Assembly (NCBI GenBank): GCA_965205505.1
Contig: CBDBHB010000009.1
Span: forward strand, 2,720,001-2,784,000
Direction of reading: 5' to 3'
DNA: 64,000 nt
Source of the DNA: Acidobacteriota bacterium
GTDB taxonomy: Bacteria; Acidobacteriota; UBA890; WLXD01
The notes below the pieces were generated by a model. That model did not search any database and was not told where the DNA came from. It saw nothing but the letters and a program-made list of their open reading frames with translations. The translations under genes were made by a program, and so were the position numbers. Positions 1,944-43,908 of this stretch are shown here, one piece after another; position 1 is the first letter of the stretch; every line of letters starts with the position of its first letter.

Positions 1944-2222
1944 CTAGCAGGCCGTGGTGAAAGTGTGGTGGGTCTGGTTACGGCGAGTTGGGGCCAGATG
2001 CAAGGCGGCCTGACACGGGCGATACCCTAGCCATCGTCGAGGAAGGCCAACGCTGCAGATGGCCCCAACTCGCCGTAACCCTTCGGGCGACAGGGGGTTG
2101 CGCGCGTATGCTGCGTCGTTCCTCGTCAACGATGGGGTAACCATCGCCTCCTCCTCTCTCCTTGCCTCCACTTCGCAAGACCCTGTCGCCAGATCCACCG
2201 CACTTTCACCACGGCCTGCTAG
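1944..2222. mobile_element. MITE-like structured element E1 (279 bp, CTAG ends, 34-bp TIR, two inverted internal modules)
   Basis: CTAGCAGGCCGTGGTGAAAGTGTGGTGGGTCTGG at 1944 pairs 32/34 with 2189-2222. Contains a perfect 21-bp internal stem and a central CCTTCGGG. Related copies at 14297, 25429, 42484 and 43844. Confidence 0.85.
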
Positions 2223-4894: not shown

Positions 4895-5998
4895 CTAATC
4901 GACGAGCTCGAAGAGGCGCATTTGTGGCAACGAGCTCGCTTGCGCCTCGGCGCCCTCGGGAAGCTCCTCGAGCCTCCCGAGGTTGGCGACCCCGAGCCCG
5001 ATCAGGCGGATTCCGGTCCCCGGTTGCAGCTCAACACGGCGGGCCAGCTGACGCGCGATGGTGCGTAGCTCCTCGCTGCTGCGTACCGGGTCGCCGGGCG
5101 TCAGCGAGCGAGTCACGGTGCGAAAGTCATGGAAACGTACCTTGAGCACGACGGTACGCGCCCAGAGGTCTCGACGCTCCAGCGATGCAGAGATTTGCTC
5201 GGCGAAGCGACGAACATGCGGGGCCGCCTCTCGCCAGCTGCGGATGTCCCGGTCGAACGTGGTCTCGGCGGAGATTGACTTCGGTCGCCCCGGCTTGGAC
5301 ACCGGTCGCGTATCAATGCCGCGCGCCAGCTCGCCGATGCGCACACCGCTCTTGCCCAGGAGCTCCCGTAGCCGCTCCGCATCGGCGGCGGCCAAGTCGC
5401 CGATGCGCGGCAGCCCGGCGTCTCGTAGCCGCGATGCGGTGGAAGGCCCGATACCCCAGATGCGATCGACGTCGAGCGGGGCGAGGAAATCGACCGCATC
5501 CGCATCGGCGATTTCCGTCAGCCCGTCCGGCTTGTCGTAATCGGAGGCGAGCTTGGCCAGGAACTTGTTGCTTGCCACGCCAGCCGAGACTGTCAGTCCG
5601 GATCGGGCAAGAACATCCCGGCGGATGATCGCGGCAATCTCGACGCCGCGTTCGCGGCGCTCCGAGACATCGAGGTAGGCCTCGTCGAGAGACAGTGGCT
5701 GCATGAGGTCCGTCCACTCTCGGTAGATCTCGAACACCAACCGCGACAGCTCACGGTAACGGTCGAATCGGGGCCGCAGATAGATTCCGTCCGGACAGCG
5801 GCGCCGAGCAATCGCCATCGGTAGTGCCGAGTGAACACCGATGGCGCGCGCCTCGTACGAGGCCGATGCCACAACGCCGCGCCGTCCGAGGCCGCCGACG
5901 ATGACCGGCTTGCCGGCAAGTTGCGGATCGTCGAGAACCTCGACGGAGGGGTAGAAGGCATCGAGGTCCAGGTGCAGGATCTTTCTCGACATGGGCAT
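4895..5998 (-). CDS. dinB: DNA polymerase IV
   Basis: HLDLDAFYPSVE, ASYEAR, SLDEAYLD and KLASDYDKPDG motifs. Start could be 5992, 5998 or 6004. Confidence 0.95.
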   Translation of the reverse strand: MPMSRKILHLDLDAFYPSVEVLDDPQLAGKPVIVGGLGRRGVVASASYEARAIGVHSALPMAIARRRCPDGIYLRPRFDRYRELSRLVFEIYREWTDLMQPLSLDEAYLDVSERRERGVEIAAIIRRDVLARSGLTVSAGVASNKFLAKLASDYDKPDGLTEIADADAVDFLAPLDVDRIWGIGPSTASRLRDAGLPRIGDLAAADAERLRELLGKSGVRIGELARGIDTRPVSKPGRPKSISAETTFDRDIRSWREAAPHVRRFAEQISASLERRDLWARTVVLKVRFHDFRTVTRSLTPGDPVRSSEELRTIARQLARRVELQPGTGIRLIGLGVANLGRLEELPEGAEAQASSLPQMRLFELVD

Positions 5999-6027
5999 CG
6001 CCATCGTATCAACGAGTGGATGCGGAC

Positions 6028-7103
6028 ATGATGAATCTGGACGACCTCCCGACACCGGCGCTAATCGTCGACCTTGACAAGCTCGAGGGCAACATCAGCT
6101 CGATGGCCGGGCGCGCACGGCAGCTCGGCGTGTCGCTGCGTCCCCACGTCAAGACCCACAAGTGCATCGAGATCGGCAAGCTGCAAGTGGATGCGGGCGC
6201 GGGCGGAATCACCGCAGCGACGCTTTACGAAGCCGAGGTATTTGCCGATGCTGGATTCGACGACATCACCTGGGCGTTCCCGCTGATTCTGTCGCGCATT
6301 CCGCAAGCGCTGGTGCTGGCGCAGCGCGTTGAGCTCGGTGTTGTCGTTGACTCCATGCATGCGGCGCAGGCGCTGGCAGCAACCAAGCATCCGTTCAAGA
6401 CCTGGATCAAGGTCGATTGCGGCTACGGTCGTTCCGGCATCGATCCTGCCGCCGACATGGCCGAACGTCTCGTCGGCCTGATCGAGGCCGAGCGACTGCG
6501 CTTCGCCGGCCTGTTGTCTCATTCCGGCGATGCCTACGATCACGACACCGTCGAGGGGCGTGCCGCCGCCGCCGAGCAGGAGCGCCGGGTCCAGGTTGAG
6601 GTTGCTGACCGACTTCGCGCGGCGGGCTACGAAGTTCCAGCGCTTAGCGTGGGCTCGACCCCATCGATGACCGCGGTCCGCGACCTCGATGGGGTTACCG
6701 AGGCACGCGCCGGCAACTACGCGTACTTCGACCTGATGCAGGTGCGTCTGGGCTCGTGCACCGTGGCCGAATGTGCCCTGACAGTTGTCAGCAGCGTGGT
6801 CTCGTCGAGTCGTGACCACGCGGTTGTCGACGCCGCGCGTTGGCCCTCTCCCAGGATCCCGGCCTTCCACCTGCGAGCATGGGCGCGATCTACGAAGACT
6901 ACGAGGCCGGGACCCTCGATGACGATCTGCAGGTCGTCTCATTGAGCCAAGAGCACGGCAAGCTGTCGCAGCCTCGACCAGTCGGCAGACGTCTCCGGAT
7001 CCTACCGAACCACGCCGGTCTGACCGCCGCATGCTTTCCCGAGTGCTACGTGGTACGCGGACAGCGTGTAGTCGATCGGTGGCGGGTATGGAACGGACGC
7101 TAG
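6028..7103 (+). pseudogene. D-threonine aldolase/D-serine dehydratase-like fold-type III PLP enzyme, frameshifted near 6836
   Basis: LPTPAL, RPHVKTHK, GNYAYFD. Continues in another frame (ALSQD...SLSQEHG...ILPNHAGLT). A one-base loss at GACGCCGCGCG (expected DAGAL) could be a real lesion or a consensus error. Confidence 0.8.
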
Positions 7104-13535: not shown

Positions 13536-14300
13536 ATGTCAGCAGATCACGTCGCTCGTAAAGATCTCAAGAAGTCGGACGAGTTCCAGCGTGGAGCTAC
13601 GGCCGCAATCTCTTGGTTCATGCAGCGGCGGAAGAGCATCGGACTGGTTCTTCTTTTCGTCGTCGCTGGACTGTCGGTTCTGGCTGGCGTGCGCTCGTAT
13701 CGAATGCGGCAGGAGCAGAATGCCGCGGCGATGCTCGCGGTAGCGCTGCAGGCGTTCAATGCCCAGATCGCCGGTGCCCCGACGACCATACCCGCCAGCT
13801 CTCCGGCCGGGCCAGCGTACGAGTCGGAAGAGGCGAAGCTCGAGGCTGCGATCCCGCCCCTGCAGGCGGTAATCGATGCCTATGGCACGTACCCTTCGGG
13901 TCGTGCCGCGTCGTTCTACCTGGGAACCAGTCTGGCGCGTCTCGGTCGCCTGGAGGCGGCCGAAGCGAGTCTACGGGACGGGGCTCAGGCGGCCGCTCCG
14001 CTGCCGCGTGCCACGTCGCTCCTTCGGCTCGGCGGGCTGTTCGCGCAGCAGGAGCGCTACGCTGAAGCTATCGAAGTGTTCGATCAGACGATCAGCGATC
14101 CGCCGCATGGGTTCCCCGTCGAGGAGGCGCTTGTCGCCAAGGCACGCGCGCATGAGGCGGCCGGACAGACTCAGGAGGCGATGCTCGCGTATCAGCAGAT
14201 CGTCGACAATCACCCAGGCTCGGTATACGCGCAGTCCGCCAAGACGCGTGCCGACGAGCTAGCCGCTACGCTCGGCCTCGACCCGGACGCAGAGCCCTAG
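13536..14300 (+). CDS. Membrane-anchored TPR protein (YfgM-like)
   Basis: RKDLKKSDEF N-terminus, one TM helix, TPR-like helices. Confidence 0.8.
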   Translation: MSADHVARKDLKKSDEFQRGATAAISWFMQRRKSIGLVLLFVVAGLSVLAGVRSYRMRQEQNAAAMLAVALQAFNAQIAGAPTTIPASSPAGPAYESEEAKLEAAIPPLQAVIDAYGTYPSGRAASFYLGTSLARLGRLEAAEASLRDGAQAAAPLPRATSLLRLGGLFAQQERYAEAIEVFDQTISDPPHGFPVEEALVAKARAHEAAGQTQEAMLAYQQIVDNHPGSVYAQSAKTRADELAATLGLDPDAEP

Positions 14301-14357
14301 CAGGCCGTGGTGCATCAGACCCCGACTCGCCGCAACCAAGCCCGCCAGCCTTCCTAG
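14297..14357. repeat. Short remnant of the CTAG element family
   Basis: CTAGCAGGCCGTGGTG (16 nt identical to the E1 end) starts in the TAG stop of the TPR gene; a second CTAG lies at 14354. Confidence 0.6.
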
Positions 14358-17172: not shown

Positions 17173-17879
17173 CGGCCACCCTCTGCGACCAGACCATAGT
17201 AGGTGGCTTCGAACTCGTCGGCGGCGCCCGCCGGCTGGATATGAGCTAGCTTGCCTCGCCGAAGCACCGCCACGCGGTCGGCCAGCTCGATGCCGCGGCG
17301 AAGGTCGTGGCTGGTCATGATGACGGTGCCGCCGGCGGCGTGGGCGGCGCGCAAGAGGTCTACCAAGCGCTCGGCGGCCATGGGGTCGAGCCCGGAGAAC
17401 GGCTCGTCGAAGAGCAGCACCTCGGGCTCGTGCACCAACGCGCGTGCGATGGAGCATCGCTGTACAAGCCCACGCGAGAAGGTCCGCACCTGATCATCGA
17501 GACGATTGCTGAGCTGCATCATGTTGGCAACGGCGCGTACGCGTGCTTCAGGATGCTCGACACCGAACATTCGGGCGTAGAAAAGAAGATTCTCGCGCGC
17601 CGTGAGCTGTCCGTAGAGGAACGATTGGTGCGACACGACGCCGATCCGTGCACGGATCCTGGCGTCGGCGCGCAACAGCCCGGTTCCGAGGATCTCGACG
17701 GTACCGGTGGTGGGACGGGCCAGCGTCGATAAGCAACGAATCAGGGTTGTCTTGCCGGCACCGTTGGGTCCGAAGATGGTAAGGAACTCGCCCCGCGGCA
17801 CCTCGAGCTCGACGCCGGCCAAGCCCACGTGCCGCCCGAATCGCTTCCCGAGCCCACGGGCAACGATGGTGGCTTGCAC
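17169..17879 (-). CDS. ccmA: Heme ABC exporter ATP-binding protein
   Basis: GPNGAGKTT, FSRG and LLFDEPFSGLD; located in the ccm cluster. Confidence 0.9.
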   Translation of the reverse strand: MQATIVARGLGKRFGRHVGLAGVELEVPRGEFLTIFGPNGAGKTTLIRCLSTLARPTTGTVEILGTGLLRADARIRARIGVVSHQSFLYGQLTARENLLFYARMFGVEHPEARVRAVANMMQLSNRLDDQVRTFSRGLVQRCSIARALVHEPEVLLFDEPFSGLDPMAAERLVDLLRAAHAAGGTVIMTSHDLRRGIELADRVAVLRRGKLAHIQPAGAADEFEATYYGLVAEGGR

Positions 17880-18157
17880 TAGTGCTCCTGATCATAAGTA
17901 CGGTGACGTTTGCAGGAGCGAGATGCGGGCGAGATCAAGGAAGGGTGAGGAAGGCGATGTCTTAGCCATCCTCGACGAGCCCTGACGCCGAGATCGCCCG
18001 CATCTCGCTCCTGCCCTCCGGGTGGCCGCGGGGCCGGCCACCTTGGGCGTCGCGGCGCCTCGACGATACACCCAGCATCGCCCTCGTCGCCGCTCCTACA
18101 ATTCGCCCCGGTCGCGCGCGCCACAAACGTCACCGTACTTATGATCAGGAGCACTAG
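17879..18157. mobile_element. MITE-like structured element E3 (279 bp, perfect 34-bp TIR of unrelated sequence)
   Basis: CTAGTGCTCCTGATCATAAGTACGGTGACGTTTG and its exact reverse complement at 18124-18157; same internal two-module layout as E1. Confidence 0.85.
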
Positions 18158-18165
18158 TAGTGTCA

Positions 18166-19341
18166 CTAGCTAGTCGCGCGCGTTGCTCGCGCCAATTTGG
18201 TTTGCTGCTCCAGTAGCTGTAGACGCTCCAGCTCCAGGCCGCGCTCTCGAAAGTATTGGTGGTCGGCGATCTCGCCGCGCTCATGCCCTAGGTCGAGGCG
18301 CGCTATCCGGTCGATCAGACGGGCGTGGAGTTGGCGAGCATGTTGCACCGACCCTCCACCGTGTAACGACGCCAACACGGCCGTCACCATGGCGATAGCA
18401 AGGCCGATTAGCGCCCAGTGCGTTGACAGCAGCCGGACACCACGAGCGCTGAGCTCGAACGACAACTCGGTCCCAGGCGCGAGCGCCTGTGCCGTCCACA
18501 GCTCGTACAGCTGGCCGCCGATATCCTGCGGCTCGTCTTGCTGCAGCGTCGAGGTCGTGAGCTCGAGGCCCGTCGTCGCGTCACCGCCCAGCATCACACT
18601 GGCCGTGCTCACCGGGTAGGGCAGGTCGAGCCTGAACGGCAAGCGGCTGTCATCGGCGGTCAACGTGTAGGTCACCGCCACCTGGCGTCCGGCGGGAGGT
18701 ACCGGTCGCGCATCCAATACTCGACCGGGCTCGATCTGGGTGTCGGCTCGCGACAGGGCATCTTCCGGCGTTGGAAACGGTGCAGGGCTGACTTCAGACG
18801 CTTGATCGGGGAGTGGAATAACCAATCCGGCCGGTCGTCCATCGTCGAGCTGCGGGCCACCGGCGTAGGCTGCTTGGCCGGCGTTGCTGACGGTCATGAA
18901 CTGCAGGACGCGGTAGATGTTGGGGTCATCGGCCTGGACAATCACGTGCAGCGTGTCGATGTGGAGCGGGTTTCCGACAGCGGTGACCGGGAATACCGGT
19001 AGGTCGATCTGGAGAACCGTCCCGATGCTCACAGTGGCCGTCGCTGATCGATAGGTGGCACCGTCGTACTCGGCGCTGACGGTGGCGTGCATGCCTGGTG
19101 CGGCCGGTACCGAATCCCACCGGACGGTGCCAGTGTCGTCTGCATCGGCCCGCGCCGAAAACACGACCGCGGTGCCGTCGTGTACTTCAAGCCGCATGAG
19201 CGGCGATGCCGGCGAGCCGTCCGGGAGCGTCGCGCGAGCCTCTACCGAGGTGGTCTCGTCCTGGGTCGGTGCCGCCGTGACCATGCCACCGGCGATCAGG
19301 GCGACGATCGCGCTGCAGGCCGCACCTCCCTTCCAGCGCAT
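18166..19341 (-). CDS. Exported, C-terminally membrane-anchored protein in the ccm cluster
   Basis: Signal peptide MRWKGGAACSAIVALIAGG, beta-rich body, C-terminal TM followed by IARLDLGHERGEI...YFRER. Confidence 0.75.
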   Translation of the reverse strand: MRWKGGAACSAIVALIAGGMVTAAPTQDETTSVEARATLPDGSPASPLMRLEVHDGTAVVFSARADADDTGTVRWDSVPAAPGMHATVSAEYDGATYRSATATVSIGTVLQIDLPVFPVTAVGNPLHIDTLHVIVQADDPNIYRVLQFMTVSNAGQAAYAGGPQLDDGRPAGLVIPLPDQASEVSPAPFPTPEDALSRADTQIEPGRVLDARPVPPAGRQVAVTYTLTADDSRLPFRLDLPYPVSTASVMLGGDATTGLELTTSTLQQDEPQDIGGQLYELWTAQALAPGTELSFELSARGVRLLSTHWALIGLAIAMVTAVLASLHGGGSVQHARQLHARLIDRIARLDLGHERGEIADHQYFRERGLELERLQLLEQQTKLARATRATS

Positions 19342-25147: not shown

Positions 25148-25432
25148 ATGAACCACGAGCTTGTTGGCGAGGAGGTCACCCTCACCGGGACGGCCTCCGG
25201 GATGCTCCGTCTCGTTGTGGACGCCACTGAGTCTTTCATGACCGCCGCCGGCGCTGCCGGATGCGATAGCGCTCAACTGGAGGCCGGTGTTCGACAGGCG
25301 CTCGACGATATCGGAGAGACGTCGGCCACCGCGATTCGTGCTCGGTTGATCGTCGTCACCGAGGGCATCGACGTGATCATCGGTCCCGATGCCGAGGGCG
25401 CGGAGTCGCACACGGTTTCGTGCCGCGTCTAG
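25148..25432 (+). CDS. Hypothetical 94-aa protein
   Basis: Coding-like composition; TATACT -10-like element upstream; its stop is the left CTAG of element E2. Confidence 0.55.
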   Translation: MNHELVGEEVTLTGTASGMLRLVVDATESFMTAAGAAGCDSAQLEAGVRQALDDIGETSATAIRARLIVVTEGIDVIIGPDAEGAESHTVSCRV

Positions 25433-25709
25433 CAGGCCGTGGTGAGAGTGTGATGGGTCTGGTTACGCCGCCAAGGGCGCAGCTGCAAGGCGCAGCGACG
25501 CCAGCAATGCCTCCGCGCATCGTTCAGGAGCGGCAACGCCGCAGATGTACCGTTGGCGGCGTAACCCTTCGGGCAAGTGGGAGTTACGGGCAAATGGCAT
25601 CGTCGTTCCTCCTCGACGATGGGCACCGCATCGCCATCCTCATCGCGCCTTGAGCTTGCCCCCATCTCGACCCAGCAATATGCAACGAACCTCTGCTACA
25701 GGCCACTAG
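25429..25709. mobile_element. MITE-like structured element E2 (281 bp, non-matching ends)
   Basis: Left end is 32/34 identical to E1; same two modules and CCTTCGGG centre; right end ...CTCTGCTACAGGCCACTAG is different. Confidence 0.8.
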
Positions 25710-28557: not shown

Positions 28558-28633
28558 GCGGGAATAGCTCAGCTGGTAGAGCGCAACGTTGCCAACGTTG
28601 AGGTCGCGGGTTCGAATCCCGTTTCCCGCTCCA
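28558..28633 (+). tRNA. tRNA-Gly(GCC)
   Basis: GCGGGAA/TTCCCGC acceptor stem, anticodon loop TTGCCAA, GGTTCGAATCC, encoded CCA. Confidence 0.97.
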
Positions 28634-28721: not shown

Positions 28722-28793
28722 GGCGGCGTAGCCAAGTGGTAAGGCAGCGGTCTGCAAAACCGCGATTCGGCGGTTCGATCCCGCCCGCCGCCT
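28722..28793 (+). tRNA. tRNA-Cys(GCA)
   Basis: GGCGGCG/CGCCGCC acceptor stem, CTGCAAA anticodon loop, GGTTCGATCCC, U discriminator; CCA not encoded. Confidence 0.95.
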
Positions 28794-34050: not shown

Positions 34051-34860
34051 ATGCTGAGAGATATGTGGAAAGCGCGTGACCTTCTGGGGGGTACTGAGCC
34101 CCGTGGCACAGATCCGATCGTGGACCGTGACCCGAACTCACCGATCGTTCGGCTACGTGGACTCGAGAAGTGGTACAAGTCGGGGTTCGGCCGCACGTAC
34201 GTGCTGCGCCGTATCAACGCAGACATCCGTCAGGGCGAGTTCGTCACCATCATGGGCCCGTCCGGGGCTGGTAAGTCGACTTTGTTGAGCATCGTCGGAA
34301 TGCTCGACGGGTCATGGGAAGGGGAGTACTACTTCCTGGACTATCCGGTTCATGACCTGAGCTCGAAAGAGCGAAATCGCCTTAATCGCGAATACATCGG
34401 CTTCGTCTTCCAGAGCTACCACCTGATCGACAGCATGACCGTCTACGAGAACCTCGACGTGCCGCTGTCGTATCGGAACGTCAAGCGTGCACAGCGCAAG
34501 AGCATGGTGGCGGACACCCTCGATCGCTTCAATATCGTCGGCAAGAAGGACCTCTATCCGAGCCAGCTATCGGGCGGTCAGCAGCAGCTGGTGGGCGTTG
34601 CTCGCGCCATCATCGGCAATCCCAAGGTACTTCTTGCCGACGAGCCGACCGGCAACCTGCACACCGCGCAGGGCAGAGAGATCATGGAGCTGTTCAAGCG
34701 CCTGTGTGAGGAGGAGGGAACGACCATCGTGCAGGTCACCCACTCCGAGATGAGCGCTGCATACAGCGACCGGATCATCAACTTGCTGGACGGCTGGGTC
34801 GTTGAAGACGATCCGTACAAAGCCGAGCACGCCGAGCCTGCCGAACCTGCCGAGTCGTAG
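34051..34860 (+). CDS. MacB/LolD-type ABC ATP-binding protein
   Basis: GPSGAGKST, IGFVFQSYHL, LSGGQQQ and LADEPTGNL. Confidence 0.93.
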   Translation: MLRDMWKARDLLGGTEPRGTDPIVDRDPNSPIVRLRGLEKWYKSGFGRTYVLRRINADIRQGEFVTIMGPSGAGKSTLLSIVGMLDGSWEGEYYFLDYPVHDLSSKERNRLNREYIGFVFQSYHLIDSMTVYENLDVPLSYRNVKRAQRKSMVADTLDRFNIVGKKDLYPSQLSGGQQQLVGVARAIIGNPKVLLADEPTGNLHTAQGREIMELFKRLCEEEGTTIVQVTHSEMSAAYSDRIINLLDGWVVEDDPYKAEHAEPAEPAES

Positions 34861-34992: not shown

Positions 34993-35205
34993 GGCAAGAG
35001 CTCAGGTGACAGCGAGGACGCCAGCCCTGTTCCGATCATGGACGTAAAGGGGAGCGGCCTGGGGCTGAGGCTGGCGTGCCCGGTGTCACCCGAGCGAGTG
35101 AATACCCGGCGGTATCGAGGACGTCAGCCCTGTCCCGATATGGACGTAAAGGGGAGCGGCCTGGGGGCGATGGCTGGCGTGCCCGATACCGCCGGGTGTT
35201 TCTTT
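34993..35205 (+). ncRNA. Candidate sigma-54-dependent tandem-hairpin sRNA
   Basis: Two units of about 100 nt with different but paired outer stems, a shared inner stem ACGYCAGCC/GGCTGGCGT and an identical 27-nt core; ends in GTTTCTTT. Confidence 0.65.
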
Positions 35206-35365
35206 GCTCGGCGGAGGTCGACCGAGTACGGATTCACGAATCGGCGGTTCGATTTCCTGGATTATAGCCGACGAGAACTGTCAGTTCCGAATGGATCTGG
35301 TGGGCTGGCGTGCCAAAATGTCGCCGCCGGCCGCCCGACATGGCCAGACCCAGGAGGATTCGCTC

Positions 35366-35650
35366 GTGTGTCGAAACATCCGTCCGTTGTTCAATTTCAA
35401 GCCTGTGGCTACCGACGCCGAGGTTCGAGCCTCGGCGTTGCAATACGTACGTAAGATCAGCGGCATGCGGGCTCCGTCGCGCACCAACCACGCGGCGTTC
35501 GAGCAGGCCGTAGACGATGTTGCCGTCGTCTCGCAGCGGCTGCTGGCCAGCCTCGTTACGACGGTGGCCCCGAAGTCGCGTGAAGAAGAGCGCGCCAAGG
35601 CCCGTATGCGATGGGAGCGGCGCGCCGCACGCCTGCAAGCGAGCGGCTGA
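35366..35650 (+). CDS. DUF2277-family protein
   Basis: MCRNIRPLFNF...ALQYVRKISG; AGGAGG RBS before GTG 35366. Confidence 0.85.
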   Translation: MCRNIRPLFNFKPVATDAEVRASALQYVRKISGMRAPSRTNHAAFEQAVDDVAVVSQRLLASLVTTVAPKSREEERAKARMRWERRAARLQASG

Positions 35651-35712: not shown

Positions 35713-36435
35713 ATGGCCGAGCTATCGTATTGCGTGTTCTGTGGCTCTCGGCACGGTGTTCGCCCCGCCTACGCCGCCGCCGCCGCTGCACTTGGCAAGG
35801 CGCTCGTCGGGCGCCGGCTCGGACTGGTATACGGCGGCGGTAACGTCGGTCTGATGGGCGTGATTGCCGACTCCGTGCTGGCGGCGGGAGGCCGGGTCAC
35901 CGGGGTCATCCCCCACGGGTTGGAGGTACGCGAGGTTGGCCACCCGTCTTTGAGCGAGCTTCTCGTGGTGGACTCGATGCACGAGCGCAAGCATCTGATG
36001 TCGGAGCTGTCGTCCGGGTTCGTCGCGTTGCCCGGCGGCATCGGCACCTTCGAGGAGTTGTTCGAGATCAGCGCCTGGGCGCAACTCGGGATGCACCGCA
36101 AGCCCGTAGCTCTCTTGAACGTCGCTGGCTACTACGACCGGCTCTTGGCGATGCTCGACCACGCGGTCGGCGAGGGCTTCGTCGAGTCTGAGCGGCGAGA
36201 GCAACTGATCGTCGACGACGAACCGGACCGACTACTGGACCGCATGGCCGGGTACGATGCTCCCAACGTGCCGCGATGGCTGGGCAGCAAGAAGACTGAG
36301 CTCGGTCGGCACAGGGGCGAACTTGATCCATGCGACGCTGTTGGCGACACTGCTGATATCTCCCCGCTCCAGAAGGGCCCTGCCCGCAAGCGCGATGCGT
36401 CGTCGCAGACGGGTCTGCCACGAGGTGAAGCGTGA
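35713..36435 (+). CDS. LOG-family nucleotide phosphoribohydrolase (TIGR00730-like)
   Basis: CVFCGS, YGGGNVGLMG, MHERK and PGGIGTFEE. The last 45 or so residues may be read-through past a lost stop near 36298. Confidence 0.9.
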   Translation: MAELSYCVFCGSRHGVRPAYAAAAAALGKALVGRRLGLVYGGGNVGLMGVIADSVLAAGGRVTGVIPHGLEVREVGHPSLSELLVVDSMHERKHLMSELSSGFVALPGGIGTFEELFEISAWAQLGMHRKPVALLNVAGYYDRLLAMLDHAVGEGFVESERREQLIVDDEPDRLLDRMAGYDAPNVPRWLGSKKTELGRHRGELDPCDAVGDTADISPLQKGPARKRDASSQTGLPRGEA

Positions 36436-38912
36436 AGAAGCTCCTCCGAGGTCTCTCGGTCCTGATCTTGCTCGTCTTGTTCGCCACACCTGCTCATGCG
36501 CAGGTCGGCTTTGGCCGGGTTGTTGCCATTGGCGACGACGAGGTGTTTGTCGGCGAGGCCGGCAATCGGGCGAGCTCTGGGTACGTTTATGTATATCGCC
36601 GAGACGGTAGCGACTGGACCGAGGTGGCAGCCCTCGCGGCCTCGGACGCCACTGACGGCGACGGCTTTGGCAGCGCGATCTCCGTTGGTGGGGAGCTGCT
36701 GCTGGTCAGCGCGGTCACCGAGGAGAACGGCGCTGTATACATGTTCCATCGCGACGGGCGCTCGTGGAACGAAGTCGGTACGCTGATGCGTTCGGGCGGG
36801 CTCGACAGCGACCGGTTTGGCGCCTCCATGTCGCGCGACGGAACGCAGCTGCTGGTCGGTGCTCCCGCCGCCGCCGATGGTTGGGGATCGGCTGTCGTGT
36901 TCGAGATGCAGGACTATCAATGGGTTCAGGTGGCGCGGCTGTCGGGAATGCGTCCGGAGGTCGAGCACGGAGCAGAGGAGGACCGCGACCGGGCGCATGG
37001 CGAGGCCGCCGGCGAACGTGCCGATAGGGGGGAGGATGGCGAGGGCGACGATGAGGCCGAGCCCCCGACACCCGAGCGCTTCGGTTCCGCCGTATTGATC
37101 AGCGATGAGTGGGCGGTGGTGGGCGCTCCCAATGCCAACAAGCGCGCCGGGCTCGCGTACGTGTTCCGCAACGGCGACGACGGCTGGAAGCAGGTGACGA
37201 CGCTAGGGGATTTCTCGGAGGAGAACGATCGCTTCGGCTCATCGTTGGCGATCAAGGGCTCCGAGCTGCTCGTGGGTGCTGTTGGTGCGGGTCAACTCGG
37301 TGCTGTGCGGCGCTTCCAATACGACGCCGAGAACGGCGAGCTCACGCGCGCGGCGAGCATGTTCCCGTTCGAAGGAACGGCGTTCGGCTTCGGCGCTGCG
37401 ATCGCCGTCCAGGGCGATGATGTGTACGTGGCGGCACCGCGGGCCAACAATGGCTCTGGCGTTATATTCCGCTACACCGACGACGGTGCCGGTAACTGGT
37501 CGGAAGTCTCCAAGATCGGTACCGGTGCGTTCGGCCCGCGATCCCGGTTCGCCGCCTCGATGGCAGTCGATGGAGACATCATCGTCGCCGGCATTCCCAA
37601 CGTCGACTTCGGTGCTGGCCAAGCGATGATCCTGACCCGCACCTACGGTGGCTGGGATCGCACTACGGTGCTCTCGGAGATCAAGGCGCTCGAGCGCATT
37701 ACCGGCGCCGCGGTGCCATGCGATGCTGGGCAGGTAGGCCATTTCGAGTGTGCCGGCGTCGACTTGCTTGCCTTCCTGCCAACGCACGAGATCGGTGGCG
37801 GGCGTGGCGTCGTCACCAACGATGTCTGGGGATGGACGGATCCCGACACGGGCCGCGACATCGCCATCGTCGGCCTCAGCACTGCCGCCTCGTTTGTCGA
37901 CGTCACGGATCCATACAACCCGGTGTACTTGGGCAGGCTACCGAGGACGGACGGGTCCAACACCAGCGTCTGGCGCGACATCAAGGTTTACGCCGACCAC
38001 GCGTTCATCGTTTCCGACAACGCCGGTGAGCATGGCATGCAGGTCTTCGACTTGAAGCGGTTGCGCGAGTTCGAAGGCGATCCGATTACCTTCATCGAGG
38101 ACGTGCTCTACACCGACATGAACTCGGCGCACAACATCGTCATCAATGAAGAGACCGCCTTCGCGTTCATCGTCGGTGCCAGTGGCGGCGGCGAGACGTG
38201 CGGCGGCGGGCTGCACATGGTGAACATCGAAGACCCGAAGCAGCCAGTCTTCGCAGGCTGCTTCCAGGACGTACGCACCGGACAGCGCGGTACCGGCTAC
38301 TCCCACGACGCGCAGTGCGTGACTTACCACGGTCCCGACGAGCGCTATGTGGGCCGAGAGATCTGCTTCGGCTCAAACGAAACAGCGTTGTCGATCGCCG
38401 ATGTCAGTGACAAGCGCGACCCGCAGGCCATCGGCATGTCGAGTTATCCGAACGTTGCCTACAGCCACCAGGGCTGGCTGACCGACGATCACCGCTACTT
38501 CTACATGAACGACGAAGGCGACGAGATGACGGGCCTCGTGGAGGGCACGCGGACGATCGTCTGGGATGTGCAGGATCTGGAGGACCCGATCGTGGCCTCC
38601 GAATACGTCTCGGACAATCCCGCAATCGACCACAACCTCTACGTGGTCGGCAACGTGATGTATCAGTCGAACTACGATTCCGGGCTGCGAGTGTTCGATG
38701 TCTCCGAACCGGAAGCGATCAAGGAGATTGGTTACATAGATACGGTGCCATTTGGTGATGACGGCCAGGGAATGGGTGGCTCATGGAGTAACTACCCGTA
38801 CTTCGGCAACGGTATCGTCGTGATCACCTCGATGAGCGAAGGCTTCTTCGTCGCCAAGGTGCGCGACGATGCCCTGCCTGCCGGGGCCTCGAGCGGATCG
38901 GAGAGGGAGTGA
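36432..38912 (+). CDS. Secreted FG-GAP repeat plus choice-of-anchor B (LVIVD-like propeller) protein, paralog 1
   Basis: Signal peptide; FG-x-S/A...VGAP repeats; NDVWGWTDP, WRDIKVY, SAHNI, YSHDAQC, YSHQGW, DHNLY and WSNYPYF. Confidence 0.85.
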   Translation: MKKLLRGLSVLILLVLFATPAHAQVGFGRVVAIGDDEVFVGEAGNRASSGYVYVYRRDGSDWTEVAALAASDATDGDGFGSAISVGGELLLVSAVTEENGAVYMFHRDGRSWNEVGTLMRSGGLDSDRFGASMSRDGTQLLVGAPAAADGWGSAVVFEMQDYQWVQVARLSGMRPEVEHGAEEDRDRAHGEAAGERADRGEDGEGDDEAEPPTPERFGSAVLISDEWAVVGAPNANKRAGLAYVFRNGDDGWKQVTTLGDFSEENDRFGSSLAIKGSELLVGAVGAGQLGAVRRFQYDAENGELTRAASMFPFEGTAFGFGAAIAVQGDDVYVAAPRANNGSGVIFRYTDDGAGNWSEVSKIGTGAFGPRSRFAASMAVDGDIIVAGIPNVDFGAGQAMILTRTYGGWDRTTVLSEIKALERITGAAVPCDAGQVGHFECAGVDLLAFLPTHEIGGGRGVVTNDVWGWTDPDTGRDIAIVGLSTAASFVDVTDPYNPVYLGRLPRTDGSNTSVWRDIKVYADHAFIVSDNAGEHGMQVFDLKRLREFEGDPITFIEDVLYTDMNSAHNIVINEETAFAFIVGASGGGETCGGGLHMVNIEDPKQPVFAGCFQDVRTGQRGTGYSHDAQCVTYHGPDERYVGREICFGSNETALSIADVSDKRDPQAIGMSSYPNVAYSHQGWLTDDHRYFYMNDEGDEMTGLVEGTRTIVWDVQDLEDPIVASEYVSDNPAIDHNLYVVGNVMYQSNYDSGLRVFDVSEPEAIKEIGYIDTVPFGDDGQGMGGSWSNYPYFGNGIVVITSMSEGFFVAKVRDDALPAGASSGSERE

Positions 38913-39985
38913 AGCCGATGGCCCGGAGAATCGTCGGGTCGCTGATCGCGGTGACCTTGATCGTCGTCGTGTTGGCATGGTCGTCGAGCGCGTTGGCGGC
39001 ACCGTCAGGGCGGGTCTACGTGGCCAGTCAAGATGGCGCGGCGATCTCGGTGATCGACATCGAGACACAGCAGCTGATCGCCACGATCGACCTCACGTCG
39101 CTCGGCTTCAACCCCACCTCCAAGCCGCATCACGTGGCCGTCGAGCCCGACGGGTCGCACTGGTACGTTTCGCTCATCGCCGATTGGCGCGTGCTCAAGT
39201 TCGATCGCGACAACAACCTCGTAGGTCAGGCCGAGTTCGAAACACCGGGGTTGCTCTCGCTCGATCCGACCGGCGAGCTGCTCTACGTAGGCCGGTCGAT
39301 GGCGGCGGTGAGCCCGCCAACGCGCATCGGGGTGATCGATCGCGACAGCATGGCGATCGACGAGATCGACGTGTTCTTTGCCCGGCCACACGCGCTAATA
39401 GCGAACCCGAACGGCGAGGTGGTGTACACGGCGAGCCTGGCCGAGAACCGTATCGCGACTGTGGAGCCGGGCGAGGACGGACTGGAGCTTCTCGACGTTC
39501 CGGGTGGGACGCATACCTTCGTTCAGTTCGCCATCTCCCCCGCCGGCGACACGATGGTCACCGGTGGCCAGATCTCTGGTGAGATCCTGGTGTTCGACAT
39601 TAGTGATTCGCGTAATCCGGTCCTGCAGAAGCGCTTTGCGCTAGGTGGCCAGCCTTGGCACCCGGTCTACTCGGCCGACGGCTCGGTGGTGTATTTCCCG
39701 CAACGCACGGCAAATACCGTAGCGGTGATCGACACGAGCAGCTGGGAGTTGGTGGATCAGATCAGCGGCGGGGGGCTCTACGAGCCACATGGTAGCGCCA
39801 TCTCAGGCGACGGCCGCTGGCTATTCGTATCCGGCCGCAACACCGCAGGTGAGTACGGTGATGTCGTCGAGGACGCCAAGCCTCCCGGAACGCTCAATAT
39901 CATCGATACGGAATCCCGGCAGGTCGTGAAGGTGCTCGAGGTGCCAGCGTATGCTGCTGGCGTCGGTGCATCTGGCAGTCGCTGA
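38909..39985 (+). CDS. Secreted YncE/YVTN-type beta-propeller
   Basis: Signal peptide; RVYVAS...ISVID, NTVAVID and P-H motifs in successive blades. Confidence 0.85.
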   Translation: MKPMARRIVGSLIAVTLIVVVLAWSSSALAAPSGRVYVASQDGAAISVIDIETQQLIATIDLTSLGFNPTSKPHHVAVEPDGSHWYVSLIADWRVLKFDRDNNLVGQAEFETPGLLSLDPTGELLYVGRSMAAVSPPTRIGVIDRDSMAIDEIDVFFARPHALIANPNGEVVYTASLAENRIATVEPGEDGLELLDVPGGTHTFVQFAISPAGDTMVTGGQISGEILVFDISDSRNPVLQKRFALGGQPWHPVYSADGSVVYFPQRTANTVAVIDTSSWELVDQISGGGLYEPHGSAISGDGRWLFVSGRNTAGEYGDVVEDAKPPGTLNIIDTESRQVVKVLEVPAYAAGVGASGSR

Positions 39986-40070
39986 TCGACTCGGCGCCCT
40001 GGGAGCGCGCACCGGGCTGCCCGGGCAGGCATGGCAGAATTCGTCGTCTTCAAACAACCGAGGTACGTCC

Positions 40071-42487
40071 ATGAGAAAGGCCGGCGCTGCCCTGTCAATG
40101 ATCGCCCTGATCGCGACCGCCACGCCTGCCCTGGCCCAGCTCGGATACGGATCTGCCGCGGCGATCGGCGCCGCCGACGTCTTTGTCGGCGAGCCGGCGA
40201 ACTTGATCGGGCCGGGGGTCGTCTACGTCTATCGGCCGGCCAACGGAGGCTGGCAGCAGGTACAGGAATTGCTTGCCTCGGATGCGAGCGATACCGATGG
40301 GTTCGGCCGTTCGATCGCGGTCGACGGCAACCGGTTGCTCGTGGGTGCAGACTCCGTTGGTGCGGCGTACCTGTTTCGCCAGCAAGCGGGTGCTTGGGAG
40401 GAAACGGCGCGCCTCGCTCCGCATAGCGCCGGCGCCGGCTTCGGTGCCGCGGTGGCGCTCGGCGATGATCTGATCCTTGTCGGCGCTCCCGGCGGCAACG
40501 AAGGTGCAGGGAGCGTGTCTATCTTCGAGCCCGCCGGCGAAGGATGGGCGTTGGCAGACGTTATCGAAGGTGACGGAACGGACGCCGCCTCGGGAGCACC
40601 AGAGGGTTTCGGCGCAACCGTAGCGCAAGCTGGCGATTGGATCTTCGTTGGCGCGCCCGGCGGGCGCGTGGATATGTTCCTCCGCGGTCAGTTTCAGCGG
40701 AACCCGCCGCACGGGAGCGTCTACGTGTTTCGTCGCGACAATGACGGCTGGAGCCGTGTCGACAAGCTCGAATCTCCTCCACAGCGCGCCGCTGGGGCGA
40801 TGTTCGGCTCGAGCATTGCTTTGAACGAAACCGAGGCGCTGATCGGTGCAGTCGGCACCGACGACTTCAGCGGCGCGGTCTACCACTATCGCTATACCCA
40901 AGAGGATGCGAGCTGGACCGTGGCGGGTAGCCTGGCGCCGTTCGATGCCCCCGCCGGCGGTATGTTCGGTATCGATATAGCGCTGGGCGAGGACGAGGCT
41001 CTCGTCGGCGCGCCGGGCGCTGGTACCGGACGGCTGGAGGGGCGCGTCTATCGCTTCAGGCGCGGTCGAACGGGCGAATGGGCCGCCGCCTCGAAGCTCG
41101 GTACCACAGGTCTCAGGTTCGGCTCCGCATACGGCGCCGCGCTTGCCGCGAAGGATGATCTGGTCGTTGCCGGGCTCCCGGGTGACGATTATGGTGCCGG
41201 TAGCGCCGTCATCATGAGCCGGTTGGCGGACGGCTGGGACCGTTCGCACGTGCTGAGCGGAGCACGCGGTCTACCCGCGATCACCGGCGGAGCGGTGGAG
41301 TGCGTCGACGGCCGCGCCGGGATCTTCGAGTGCGACAACGTCGACCTGATCGCCTTCCTCCCGGTGCAGGCCATAGGTGGAGGGCGCGGCGTGACCACGA
41401 ACGACATCTGGGGCTGGACCGATCCGCAGACCGACCGCGACTACGCCATCGTTGGCATGCGCGATGGTACTTCCTTCGTCGATGTGAGCGATCCGTACGT
41501 CCCCGTCTTCGTCGGCAAGCTGTCGAAGTCAGCCGACTCCCCCGCCAGCCTGTGGCGTGACATCAAGGTCTACGCCGATCACGCCTTCATCGTTGCCGAC
41601 GCTTCCGGGCCGCATGGGGTACAGGTCTTCGACCTGACTCAGCTACGAGAGTTCGAGGGCACGCCACTCGTCTTTAGCGAAGCGGCGCACTACAACGGTG
41701 TGAACTCGTCACACAATATTCACATCAACGTCGATAGCGCCTTCGCGTACGCGGTGGGCAATAGCTCCGGCGGGGAAACGTGCGGCGGTGCGCTGCACAT
41801 GATCAACGTCGAGGATCCACGCAACCCGATCTTCGCGGGATGTTTCGAGCCACAGGCGGGCAGCCCGCGCGGCCCCGGTGGTACGCACGATGTGCAATGC
41901 GTCACCTACGAGGGCCAGATGAGCGCTATCGAGGACGGGAGGTGTGCTTCAGCTCCGACGGACGGGCTTTCGGCATCGGCGACGTCACCGACAAACGCAA
42001 CCCGCGAGTGATCGCCCTAGCGATCTACCCGAATCTAGCGTACACGCATCAGGGCTGGCTCGACGGGGAGCACCGCTACTTCTATATGAACGACGAGGGC
42101 GATGAAATCGCCGGGCTCGTCGTTGGCACACGGACGCTGATCTGGGACGTGCAGGATCTGGAGGATCCGATCCTCGTAGGCGAGTACACCACCGACAACC
42201 CCGCCACCGACCACAACCTCTACATCGTCGGCGACGTGATGTACCAGTCGAATTACCGCAGTGGTTTGCACGTGCTCGATATCAGCGAGCGCGAGCAACC
42301 GCGGCCGCTCGGTTTCTTCGACACCGTACCGTGGGGCGACAACGACGGCATGGGCGACATCCTGTCCGGGGCGATCGGCTCGTGGAGCAACTACCCGTTC
42401 TTCGACAGCGGCGTGGTGGCCGTAACTTCCGGCAAAGAGGGTCTGTTCATCCTCAAGGTGCACGACCCCGACCGGTACCGCCCCTAG
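40071..42487 (+). pseudogene. FG-GAP plus choice-of-anchor B protein, paralog 2, single frameshift near 41912
   Basis: Collinear with paralog 1; the frame changes at TYEG/GPDERY (GAGGGCCAGATG, a short homopolymer), possibly a sequencing error. Confidence 0.8.
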
Positions 42488-42642
42488 CAGGCCGTGGTGA
42501 AAGTGTGGTGGGTCTGGCGACAGGGTCTTGCGAAGTGGAGGCAAGGAGAGAGAGGAGAAGGCGATGGTTACGCCATCGTTGACGAGGAACGACGCAGCAT
42601 ACGCGCGCAACCCCCTGTCGCCCGATCACCACGGCCTGCTAG
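42484..42642. mobile_element. Single-module derivative E4 of element E1 (159 bp)
   Basis: Nearly identical to the reverse complement of the right half of E1, up to CCCGA of the central linker, then joined to a 17-bp TIR end. Left CTAG is a TAG stop. Confidence 0.85.
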
Positions 42643-42648
42643 CACTGG

Positions 42649-43257
42649 ATGACGGGCGTAGTGGCTGACAACGGCGGACAACATGCGTCCGGGCAGCGTG
42701 CGGGGGGAAGCGGTGCGCCGAGCGCAGCTCGGCTGATCGAGCGGCTGGTGGCTTTGGGTACTACCCACGTCGTCGGTATTCCGGACAACGACACCGCGCA
42801 GGTTTTCGAGCGCCTGTGCGGTCACCCGACGATCCGGCTGCTGAGCGTCACGCGAGAGGGCGAGGCGTTCGCCATTGCTGCGGGGCTATGGATCGGCGGC
42901 CAACAGTCGGTGGTGATCATCCAAAACACCGGGTTGCTCGAGAGCGGCGATAGCCTGCGCGGCACCGCCGGGCGCATGGGGGTTCCATTGCTCTGCCTGG
43001 TGGGCTATCGGGGCTACGCGAAGATGCTCGCCGCCAAGCTGGCAACGCTTCCCCGACCGTACGATGCAGCGACGCTGACGCGCGCCGACGTCGACTCGGT
43101 GGCCCTCCTGACCGAGCCTACGTTGGCCGCCTGGGGCGTGCCGTTCTGGCGGCATGACTCGGACATCGACACCGATAAGGTGGTGCCACACGCTTTCGAG
43201 ACGGCTGCGCAGCAGTCTCAACCCACCGTTGTGCTGCTGACGCGCGGGTTCACGTGA
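42649..43257 (+). CDS. ThDP-dependent sulfopyruvate/phosphonopyruvate decarboxylase-like alpha subunit
   Basis: VVGIPD, VTREGEAFAIAAG, IQNTG and GYRG. Confidence 0.8.
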   Translation: MTGVVADNGGQHASGQRAGGSGAPSAARLIERLVALGTTHVVGIPDNDTAQVFERLCGHPTIRLLSVTREGEAFAIAAGLWIGGQQSVVIIQNTGLLESGDSLRGTAGRMGVPLLCLVGYRGYAKMLAAKLATLPRPYDAATLTRADVDSVALLTEPTLAAWGVPFWRHDSDIDTDKVVPHAFETAAQQSQPTVVLLTRGFT

Positions 43258-43847
43258 TGCTCACGAAGGACGAGCTGCTCGCCCCGCTCGCACGGCTGCG
43301 CGAGGATCGGATCGTGGTGACGACGATGTCCGTGGTGCGCCCATGGGCACGCCATTCGCAGAGCGAGCTCGATTTTGCGTCGGCAGATAGCGCCATGGGG
43401 CACGCGGCAGACCTGGCGCTGGGTTTGGCGCTGGCGCAGCCGAAGCGCGGTGTGGTCTGCCTCAACGGCGACGGCAGCATGCTGATGAGCTTGGGTACGC
43501 TGGCGACGATCGTCGACTCCGGCGCCACCAACTTGACCCTTCTGATCGTCGACAACGGTACCTATGAGATCACCGGTAGTCAGCCGCTGCCGGCACAGGG
43601 GAGGATTGACTTCGGTGCCCTGGCGCGTGCCGTCGGTTTCCGCAGGACGTACGCCTTCGAGGACGCCGACGAGTACGAGCAGCAGTTGCCGGAGGTGCTG
43701 GCCGGCGTGGGGCCAGTGCTGGTCTCCGTTCGCGTCGAGCCGGGCACCGAGGGGCCGCTGGCGCGGAGGCCATCAGCATCGTCGCACTACCTGCGCACGT
43801 CGCTACGCGAATCGGCCCGGCGACTGCGCGAGATCCTGAGTGGCTAG
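43254..43847 (+). CDS. ThDP-dependent decarboxylase-like beta subunit
   Basis: AMGHA, NGDGSMLMSLGTL and DNGTYEITGSQP ThDP motif; GTGA coupling to the alpha subunit. Confidence 0.8.
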   Translation: MMLTKDELLAPLARLREDRIVVTTMSVVRPWARHSQSELDFASADSAMGHAADLALGLALAQPKRGVVCLNGDGSMLMSLGTLATIVDSGATNLTLLIVDNGTYEITGSQPLPAQGRIDFGALARAVGFRRTYAFEDADEYEQQLPEVLAGVGPVLVSVRVEPGTEGPLARRPSASSHYLRTSLRESARRLREILSG

Positions 43848-43908
43848 GAAGTGTGGTGGGTCTGGCGACAGGGTCAGCGTACCGCGGTCAGGGTGCGGTT
43901 TACGCTAG
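43844..43908. repeat. Remnant of E4-type element
   Basis: After CTAG (a TAG stop) comes AAGTGTGGTGGGTCTGGCGACAGGGTC, identical to 42501-42527; another CTAG lies at 43905. Confidence 0.7.

Follow-up and report, generated by a model that had tools for sequence, protein, structure and literature searches.

Which part of a small inverted repeat without genes is kept as its copies spread, and what would read that part, is the question raised by E1, a 279-bp element at positions 1944–2222 of a 64,000-nucleotide stretch of DNA from an Acidobacteriota bacterium (GenBank assembly GCA_965205505.1, contig CBDBHB010000009.1, forward-strand positions 2,720,001–2,784,000; this whole stretch is referred to as the window). 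[quoted passage not shown] Our analysis leads us, with moderate confidence, to the reading that E1 represents a CTAG-flanked inverted-repeat element of the MITE type that carries no genes, is present in many copies, and is moved in trans, and that its internal module is cis-acting, with a single strand as the form that is selected. The superfamily to which E1 belongs is, as judged from the sequences compared here, spread across several phyla and defined by a hairpin module of ~105 nt rather than by its ends.

E1, E3, and E2 share one plan, which the earlier note described correctly together with their coordinates (Table 1): CTAG, an end of ~30 nt, a module of ~105 nt, a short linker, an inverted module, an end, and CTAG. 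More generally, an element is made up of two ends (~27–30 nt) and one or two modules; those in the window measure 159–281 bp, and any open reading frames (ORFs) with which they overlap are spurious, the DNA being palindromic. The ends of E1 are 34 nt long with 2 mismatches; the inverted arms of E3 (17878–17912 and 18124–18158; 35 nt) are 100% complementary; and the arms of a one-module copy (E4) are 97% complementary to the E1 arms 2083–2222. We made a covariance model from the seven modules of the window, a check that the earlier note had proposed, and scanned the whole window with filters off; the model finds those seven modules alone, with 71–103.6 bits on their sense strands and 15–45 bits on the antisense strands, and the best unrelated match scores 17.7 bits. 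The module motif CAAGG-N12-14-GCGAT-N9-ATCSTYSASG-N7-ACG is present in five of the seven window modules (0 occurrences in 100 shuffles) and misses module A of E2 (which has GCAAT) and module B of E3 (which has GTAGG).

Scanning a set of species-representative genomes with the module motif gave at least 68 loci, each of at most 8 kb; all counts of loci that follow are among the matches listed. The loci belong to metagenome-assembled genomes (MAGs) labeled Acidobacteriota (most of them), Thermoanaerobaculia, Gemmatimonadota, Myxococcota, Brocadiaceae, Alphaproteobacteria, and ‘proteobacterium’. The covariance model has at least 134 matches in them; after antisense overlaps are dropped and the window's seven modules are added, at least 118 non-overlapping modules remain, that is, 36 dimers and 46 single modules, several of which are complete one-module elements with both ends and others of which are cut by the ends of contigs or loci. 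E1 itself is matched over its full length at at least 21 loci (88.7–97.5% identity), 18 of them in one MAG (by record titles); in an all-against-all comparison of the loci these matches are confined to the element and the flanks are never shared. Full-length copies at many loci with unrelated flanks identify E1 as a multicopy, non-autonomous repeat of the MITE type. E1 is a member of a young, high-copy subfamily in which the whole element, including its ends, is conserved as in an ordinary MITE, and this subfamily is closest to copies in Acidobacteriota MAGs. BLASTN in distant mode gave no match for E1 or E3 in plasmids or for E1 in phages, and the all-against-all comparison of the listed loci and the window contained no orthologous pair spanning an insertion site, so that the empty sites for which the earlier note had called were not found there. 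Several loci (e.g., L005, L019, L025, L027, and L043) are on short contigs whose ends fall within a copy or next to one; the repeat probably breaks metagenome assemblies. A covariance model of the module would allow this repeat, now unannotated in Acidobacteriota and other poorly studied phyla, to be masked or labeled.

For the analysis of structure, 112 modules of at least 95 nt were grouped into 35 clusters at 85% identity (lineages), and 33 representatives were aligned. The module folds into a long hairpin of irregular shape. Its two outer helices, which are free in sequence, lead to an internal loop of fixed sequence (caAgG on the 5′ side, ACGC on the 3′ side), inward of which are a 5-bp helix of free sequence, a purine-rich loop, and an inner helix of fixed sequence (GGCGATGc ... 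cATCGTc) that contains a G-U pair in 28 of 33 lineages and is closed by a terminal loop of free sequence. In the 33 representatives, 82.7% of cells are paired, compared with 63.2% after shuffling; the covariation score is 0.469, compared with 0.163 in shuffles, none of which (0 of 500) reached that value; and both sides have changed in 24 of 31 pairs. The proposal that structure is conserved while the stems vary is thus borne out, and the structure of the module is, on this comparative evidence, under selection. Among young copies of the E1 type, substitutions per paired site (0.023 and 0.027) are fewer than those per unpaired site (0.048 and 0.094). The modules fall into two classes, A and B, which are separated by one core pair that is C-G in 22 lineages but G-C in 5. 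Most dimers consist of one class A and one class B module, across end types and in both Acidobacteriota and Gemmatimonadota, and the two-module architecture is therefore old. The two modules usually meet across a 5-nt junction, so that one strand can fold into a Y, that is, an end-to-end stem and two hairpins; E1, folded as RNA, adopts this shape (−179.3 kcal/mol, z = −13), with its ends paired and each module a hairpin.

The earlier note did not recognize the elements as a named family, and Rfam agrees: the window at the gathering threshold gave only 2 tRNAs, E1 at E-values up to 10 gave only hairpin-like microRNA models far below threshold, and 18 loci from diverse taxa gave only 3 tRNAs. 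Two other identities for the module were also considered and rejected by inspection. A conserved peptide was rejected because the spacers between the fixed blocks vary by 1–2 nt and the stems are palindromic; a promoter or terminator was rejected since no T run follows the hairpins and no AT-rich −10-like box is present in the modules.

Unlike the module, the ends have diverged. At least 51 distinguishable ends are found beside the same module; their groups include the E1 type with its relatives (in Acidobacteriota, Brocadiaceae, Gemmatimonadota, and Thermoanaerobaculia), the type of E3, a third to which the right end of E2 belongs, and others in Myxococcota and proteobacterial MAGs. Over 21 lineages the mean pairwise identity of the ends is 0.39 (0.25 when shuffled), and several positions are kept in 14–17 of the 21. 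The ends of E1 and E3, which had been called unrelated beyond CTAG, agree at 12 of 30 positions when counted without gaps from CTAG and at 8 of 10 in positions 14–23; the ends of different subfamilies are thus diverged homologs, not unrelated sequences. Nor are the ends freely interchangeable: 32 of the 33 dimers listed have both ends of one type, and the only mixed one is E2, which lacks an inverted repeat. Because its left half resembles E1 (the left end, 25429–25462, is of the E1 type) and its right end aligns with those of L054 and L056, E2 looks like a recombinant (chimera) of two subfamilies. Identity is 0.71 in the module core, 0.39 in the ends, and 0.43 in the outer stems, and the contrast between conserved interior and diverged ends is therefore real between subfamilies. 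The suggested reversal of the usual MITE pattern accordingly stands at that level and fails within a subfamily, where the whole element is conserved.

Which strand folds is indicated by three asymmetries. The better-scoring strand of every module reads inward from the nearer end, and in 30 of 35 lineages this inward-reading (sense) strand folds more stably than its complement (mean difference −7.25 kcal/mol; Wilcoxon p = 6e−6). In the variable stems, G-U pairs outnumber A-C pairs by 41 to 12 (32 to 9 in class A, 3 to 0 in class B). When the end-to-end stem is read, in 21 dimers, on the strand that is sense for class A, G-U outnumbers A-C by 17 to 1 (positions 7–33, over 12 positions). The stability of the sense strand and the excess of G-U therefore favor a single-stranded form with one set polarity; this strand bias fits the proposal of the earlier note that selection acts on a folded single strand, whether RNA or DNA.

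Among the matches listed and the window, 91 of 114 module-side ends have TAG 25–36 nt out from the module, and the tetranucleotide is CTAG at 78 of these, TTAG at 7, ATAG at 3, and GTAG at 3. CTAG is ~9 times rarer than GATC in the window (61 vs 559). It flanks both sides of 23 of 33 dimers, and adjacent elements in L054 and L019 use one common CTAG. One dimer (in L015) has TTAG on both sides, which fits a 4-bp duplication, and L065 is similar with one extra base; two dimers (TTAG/CTAG and ATAG/CTAG) fit a TA duplication, and 3 dimers in all have unequal tetranucleotides. At 45 of the 91 ends an open frame (80 codons or longer) enters the element and has this TAG as its stop codon, compared with 24 and 12 in the two shifted frames; elements are therefore often located exactly on a TAG stop, which the element restores. 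Landing on the rare CTAG, often a stop codon that is restored, would be a harmless route of insertion.

No gene that could move these elements was found close to them among the ORFs scanned. Pfam searches identified no transposase, integrase, HUH, or reverse transcriptase family among 56 ORFs of the window (42 + 14) or among 119 ORFs of the loci (93 + 26; of 272 ORFs in the listed loci of at most 8 kb), and the neighbors of copies in other loci are ordinary metabolic genes. The prediction that the element is non-autonomous is in agreement with this result; the companion suggestion, that a copy might flank a transposase, HUH nuclease, or reverse transcriptase gene, found no example among the same ORFs. 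A related autonomous element with the same ends was likewise found neither among these 175 ORFs nor in the plasmid and phage collections. Among the matches listed, the only end pair that encloses a gene is in L038 (4937–6241), where a complete one-module element is followed by a gene for a LuxR-type response regulator (5415–6065), not a transposase, then by an antisense class B module core (6098–6165, 28 bits) and an inverted end; matching ends thus enclose ~1.3 kb including the passenger gene, and this may be a cargo-carrying composite.

The mechanism that we favor is as follows. Selection would act on the element as a single strand, which could be a transcript or an intermediate of single-stranded DNA. 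The module would act in cis in the element's own cycle, for example in recognition, synapsis, or control by the mobilizing enzyme or a helper, and would perform no service for the neighboring host gene. The enzyme would be encoded elsewhere, most probably as a DDE transposase, either one whose target is TA within CTAG or one by which CTAG is duplicated; candidates are enzymes like those of IS630/Tc1-mariner or IS5, for which the diverged ends would be lineage-specific binding sites. The fold that is kept across MAGs of at least five phylum labels, together with its loop sequences, while the ends diverge, points to a cis-acting structured nucleic acid in the life cycle of a transposon.

Several observations weigh against this reading. 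Mobility is deduced from copy number and boundaries alone, with no autonomous copy, partner enzyme, or empty site among the sequences searched, and the boundary variants point both ways, some to a duplication of TA and others to one of 4 bp. The asymmetry of the strands is not uniform: on their own sense strand the class B modules of the E1 type have G-U 7 and A-C 5, and the ends of 7 one-module copies have no trend (class A, G-U 1 and A-C 3; class B, G-U 6 and A-C 2). The copies are related, so the events counted are not all independent, and a strand-biased mutation process could add to the asymmetry. The linker reads as a UNCG-like loop on one strand, but on the opposite strand it is GNA-like, and the observations do not separate RNA from DNA. 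Finally, the alignment was made with MAFFT, the structure was assigned partly by eye, and the shuffle control can be beaten by relatedness alone.

Does the fold serve the host instead? In this alternative an ordinary transposase would move the element through its ends alone, and the module would act after insertion, as RNA in host transcripts, where it would be a 3′-end stabilizer, a terminator or insulator, or a processing site for the abutting gene; copies that keep the fold would be tolerated or favored. We regard this as unlikely, and of the alternatives it is the one that survives best. It would account for the position of about half of the ends precisely at a TAG stop, and whichever flank a transcript came from, it would meet a sense module first; G-U pairs are tolerated, and one is kept in the inner helix of 28 of 33 lineages; many linkers resemble C(UNCG)G; among young copies, changes are fewer at paired than at unpaired sites; and transcribed repeats with compensatory changes are known, bcr1 of the Bacillus cereus group being an example (PMC3184786, in part). 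However, one-module copies between co-directional genes have no orientation bias (5 sense and 8 antisense; small numbers and crude gene calls), and the coincidence of dimers with stop codons prefers neither the A side (13 of 24) nor the B side (14 of 23; the same qualification applies). This lack of bias relative to host transcription favors a role in the element's own cycle. In addition, no T run follows the hairpin, internal loops whose sequence is conserved across phyla exceed the needs of a stabilizing hairpin, and the asymmetry of the end-to-end stem tracks the polarity of the element, not that of its host.

A second alternative retains the folded single strand and replaces the enzyme. 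The element would be moved by a structure-specific enzyme, either an HUH/Y1 protein (as for IS200/IS605 and REP-RAYT) or a tyrosine recombinase (as for attC and folded phage attP); the inverted repeats would be no more than a basal stem, and CTAG would be a site of cleavage or crossover and not a duplication. The kept structure with varying stem sequence, the favored strand (including the end-to-end stem), the boundaries that are a fixed palindromic tetranucleotide, the lack of a DDE partner among the ORFs scanned, and the association of one module with very different ends are all compatible with such an enzyme. We nevertheless think it quite improbable, given that no HUH or tyrosine recombinase gene is near the copies among those same ORFs and that ends of 27–34 nt with kept positions resemble the inverted repeats to which proteins bind. 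The modules here are on opposite strands, whereas the IS200/IS605 type has no inverted ends and carries its hairpins on one strand; the elements are scattered and not arranged in cassette arrays; and GTTACGG, present in the stems of some lineages and absent from others, does not fit the attC core consensus.

The fold could also be a by-product, that is, the family could be a neutral palindromic MITE with functionless hairpins whose arms are kept complementary by fold-back synthesis or by gene conversion within the element, and whose shared core reflects common descent and recent horizontal spread. The stems are near-perfect palindromes as DNA, the data are mostly young copies of few subfamilies, and, as noted, relatedness alone can exceed the shuffle control. 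Controls in which the pairing partner is slid along the alignment keep the relatedness, yet they drop to 29–49% paired and a covariation score of at most 0.144. Common descent is also hard to reconcile with 35 lineages in MAGs of at least five phylum labels in which the core is so much better conserved than the stems, and symmetric conversion would yield neither the excess of G-U over A-C nor the greater stability of the sense strand, nor would it keep a non-palindromic G-U pair in 28 of 33 lineages; we therefore hold this explanation to be very doubtful. A family of domesticated, structured host genes for noncoding RNA that merely resembles a transposon would explain the conserved structure with fixed loops and, given the lack of an Rfam match, is conceivable as an undescribed RNA, but it is the least probable explanation, given dozens of near-identical copies at unrelated sites in one MAG, both orientations, truncated copies, remnants, and a chimera, and insertions on stop codons and beside other copies.

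If the cis-acting role of the module that we prefer is taken further, these could be mobile elements, shared across phyla, whose cycle needs a Y fold of fixed polarity that the machinery reads in place of the double-stranded sequence of the ends. A recombinase or nuclease that is specific for single strands and has so far not been associated with elements of this kind could do the reading; alternatively, an RNA copy could serve as template or guide. We offer this extension only tentatively and would not expect it to prevail; if true, recognition of a Y fold would be a new mode of transposon recognition in bacteria.

Table 1. Elements, their parts, and remnants in the window (covariance model scores in bits, in the order in which the modules are listed).
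Feature	Coordinates	Strand	Description	Score
E1	1944–2222	.	complete two-module element (dimer), 279 bp	103.6 and 95.9
E1, left end	1944–1977		CTAG + end
E1, first module	1975–2080	+	class A
E1, linker	2079–2087		CCCTTCGGG
E1, second module	2086–2191	-	class B
E1, right end	2189–2222		end + CTAG
E3	17879–18157	.	dimer, other end type; modules 17910–18015 (+) and 18021–18125 (-); linker CCCTCCGGG	101.7 and 71
E2	25429–25709	.	chimeric dimer; modules 25460–25566 (+) and 25572–25678 (-); linker CCCTTCGGG	88.8 and 79.5
E4	42484–42642	+	one-module copy; full left end, class B module 42515–42622, right end only 17 nt	94
Remnant, 61 bp	14297–14357	+	CTAG to CTAG; no module, no match to the covariance model
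Remnant, 65 bp	43844–43908	+	CTAG to CTAG; inner E1-type end + first bases of class B stem
Mini stretch	18158–18173	.	CTAG-bounded, adjoining E3; inner bases resemble first + last bases of type-2 end

The window (64% G+C) contains housekeeping genes (fumarase, a DinB-type polymerase, molybdopterin synthesis, ccm cytochrome c maturation, ribF, cysS, metH, and several FG-GAP proteins), and the elements occupy very tight intergenic gaps among them. E3 is flanked on one side by the stop of a 529-aa ORF and on the other by the start of a gene for a ccmA-like ABC (ATP-binding cassette) ATPase; E2 is between a small ORF that stops at the terminal TAG of E2 and cysS; and the terminal TAG of E4 is the stop of the upstream ORF 41780–42487. 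The 61-bp remnant was located with the 17-nt start of the E1 end as query; its first 16 nt resemble an E1-type end (1 mismatch in 17), and the remainder is degenerate. The 65-bp remnant begins on the TAG stop of a TPP-enzyme (thiamine pyrophosphate) gene, and its stretch 43849–43875 is identical to 42501–42527 in E4. Mini CTAG-bounded remnants similar to the one that adjoins E3 are present also in L009, L026, and L039; these may be excision footprints or extreme deletion derivatives.

A pair of TPP-enzyme genes (42649–43847) is bracketed by E4 and the 65-bp remnant in direct orientation (42484–43908), and in a locus of another Acidobacteriota MAG (L008, 4098–5085) a TPP_enzyme_C gene is beside a module. 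Just upstream of E4, the overlapping ORFs 39951–42011 and 41780–42487, in different frames, jointly resemble the paralogous FG-GAP gene 36432–38912 (identity is 72% in a 300-nt repeat, 38331–38630 vs 41912–42211), which points to a frameshift in the gene or to an error of sequencing. Transfer RNA genes occur near some copies elsewhere: in L062 (170–531; Myxococcota) a tRNA gene (312–385) is between two modules, and in L016 (7503–7836) two tRNA genes are at most 250 nt from a module. The two tRNA genes of the window (28558–28630 and 28722–28793) adjoin no element.

Two further kinds of repeat are present in the window. At 34998–35211, between an ABC ATPase gene (34051–34860) and a DUF2277 gene (35204–35650) that is followed by a LOG-family gene, are two tandem hairpin units of ~90–115 nt that have a long conserved loop region in common; they match no Rfam family at the gathering threshold or at E-values up to 1, where only microRNA-like hairpin noise is found, and they could be an undescribed cis-regulatory RNA or another repeat. 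At 44252–45885 and 60372–61089, periodic repeats of 150–230 nt within FG-GAP/VCBS-type genes encode Asp/Gly-rich motifs like those that bind calcium; this is an ordinary protein repeat, unrelated to the CTAG-flanked elements.

How does the family compare with systems that are already known? According to the title of a 1991 paper by Tenzen and Ohtsubo, IS630 reportedly prefers TA within 5′-CTAG-3′. The boundaries of the present elements, with CTAG at 78 of 91 ends and TTAG and ATAG as variants, resemble those of MITEs of the IS630/Tc1-mariner and IS5 groups. A TA duplication is described in the context of IS630-type elements (PMC2170065, as far as consulted), and IS5 duplicates a 4-bp target with the consensus C(A/T)A(G/A) (PMC11677980, likewise in part). 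No transposase related to either group was found among the ORFs scanned here. Neither the IS630/Tc1-mariner nor the IS5 family is known to have subterminal hairpin modules with covariation.

Folded single-strand sites (attC, the hairpins of IS200/IS605, and REP/REPIN) are recognized by shape, with free sequence and one active strand. The present modules are similar in that their stems covary and one strand is favored. The known sites measure 20–140 nt, have neither long inverted ends nor CTAG boundaries, and occur beside cassettes or their own HUH or integrase genes; in contrast, the present elements are scattered, have inverted ends and modules on opposite strands, and have no such gene nearby among the ORFs scanned. 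Each of the three assignments was considered and rejected. Non-autonomous elements of the IS200/IS605 type have subterminal hairpins on the same strand at both ends, no inverted ends, and no duplication; two modules on opposite strands and long inverted ends exclude the elements from this type. The attC sites are imperfect palindromes of 60–140 nt with conserved core sites, located at the 3′ end of gene cassettes in arrays beside an integrase gene; the present elements are dispersed among housekeeping genes and form no arrays, and the ORFs scanned include no integrase. REP/REPIN sequences are palindromes of 20–40 nt tagged GTAG or CGTC, often in inverted pairs, with a RAYT gene in the genome (PMC3733652, in the parts consulted); modules of ~105 nt, CTAG boundaries, inverted ends of 27–34 nt, and the lack of Y1/HUH proteins in the Pfam scans argue against this assignment.

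In structure and copy number the elements agree with MITEs: they measure 159–281 bp (the range is about 50–800 bp), encode no transposase, have terminal inverted repeats, and occur at many unrelated sites; no autonomous parent was found among the sequences searched. Some classic bacterial MITEs likewise have no known partner enzyme. We found no published description of a CTAG-flanked module family; neither a census of MITEs (PMC11602168), whose supplementary tables might list it, nor a preprint (bioRxiv 10.64898/2026.09.15.751765) mentions it in the parts of these sources that were consulted. The Correia (CREE, of Neisseria) and ERIC-type elements are intergenic MITEs of 100–160 bp with terminal inverted repeats, those of the ERIC type being flanked by 5′-TA-3′ (PMC3184786, in part). 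They are like the present elements in their high copy number, their lack of a transposase gene, and the long hairpins that they form as single strands. Compared by description, they are set apart in that each is recognized, in a single genus or family, by its conserved ends and its sequence as a whole, whereas here the conserved unit is an internal structured module, which is shared in several phyla by subfamilies whose ends differ greatly.

Among mobile repeats in which structure rather than sequence is conserved, the nearest precedent is, in the sections of PMC3184786 that were consulted, bcr1 of the B. cereus group: a repeat of ~155 bp with short direct repeats that occupies differing positions in related strains, is transcribed, and has compensatory changes that keep a cruciform-like fold at the RNA level. 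Again compared by description, bcr1 belongs to one bacterial group and has 5-bp direct repeats, whereas the present family has CTAG boundaries, inverted ends of 27–34 nt, one or two modules with loops of fixed sequence, and A and B module classes, and is found in MAGs of several phyla. In this comparison the family is a MITE-type repeat that is defined by the part it conserves, an internal structured module common to several phyla.

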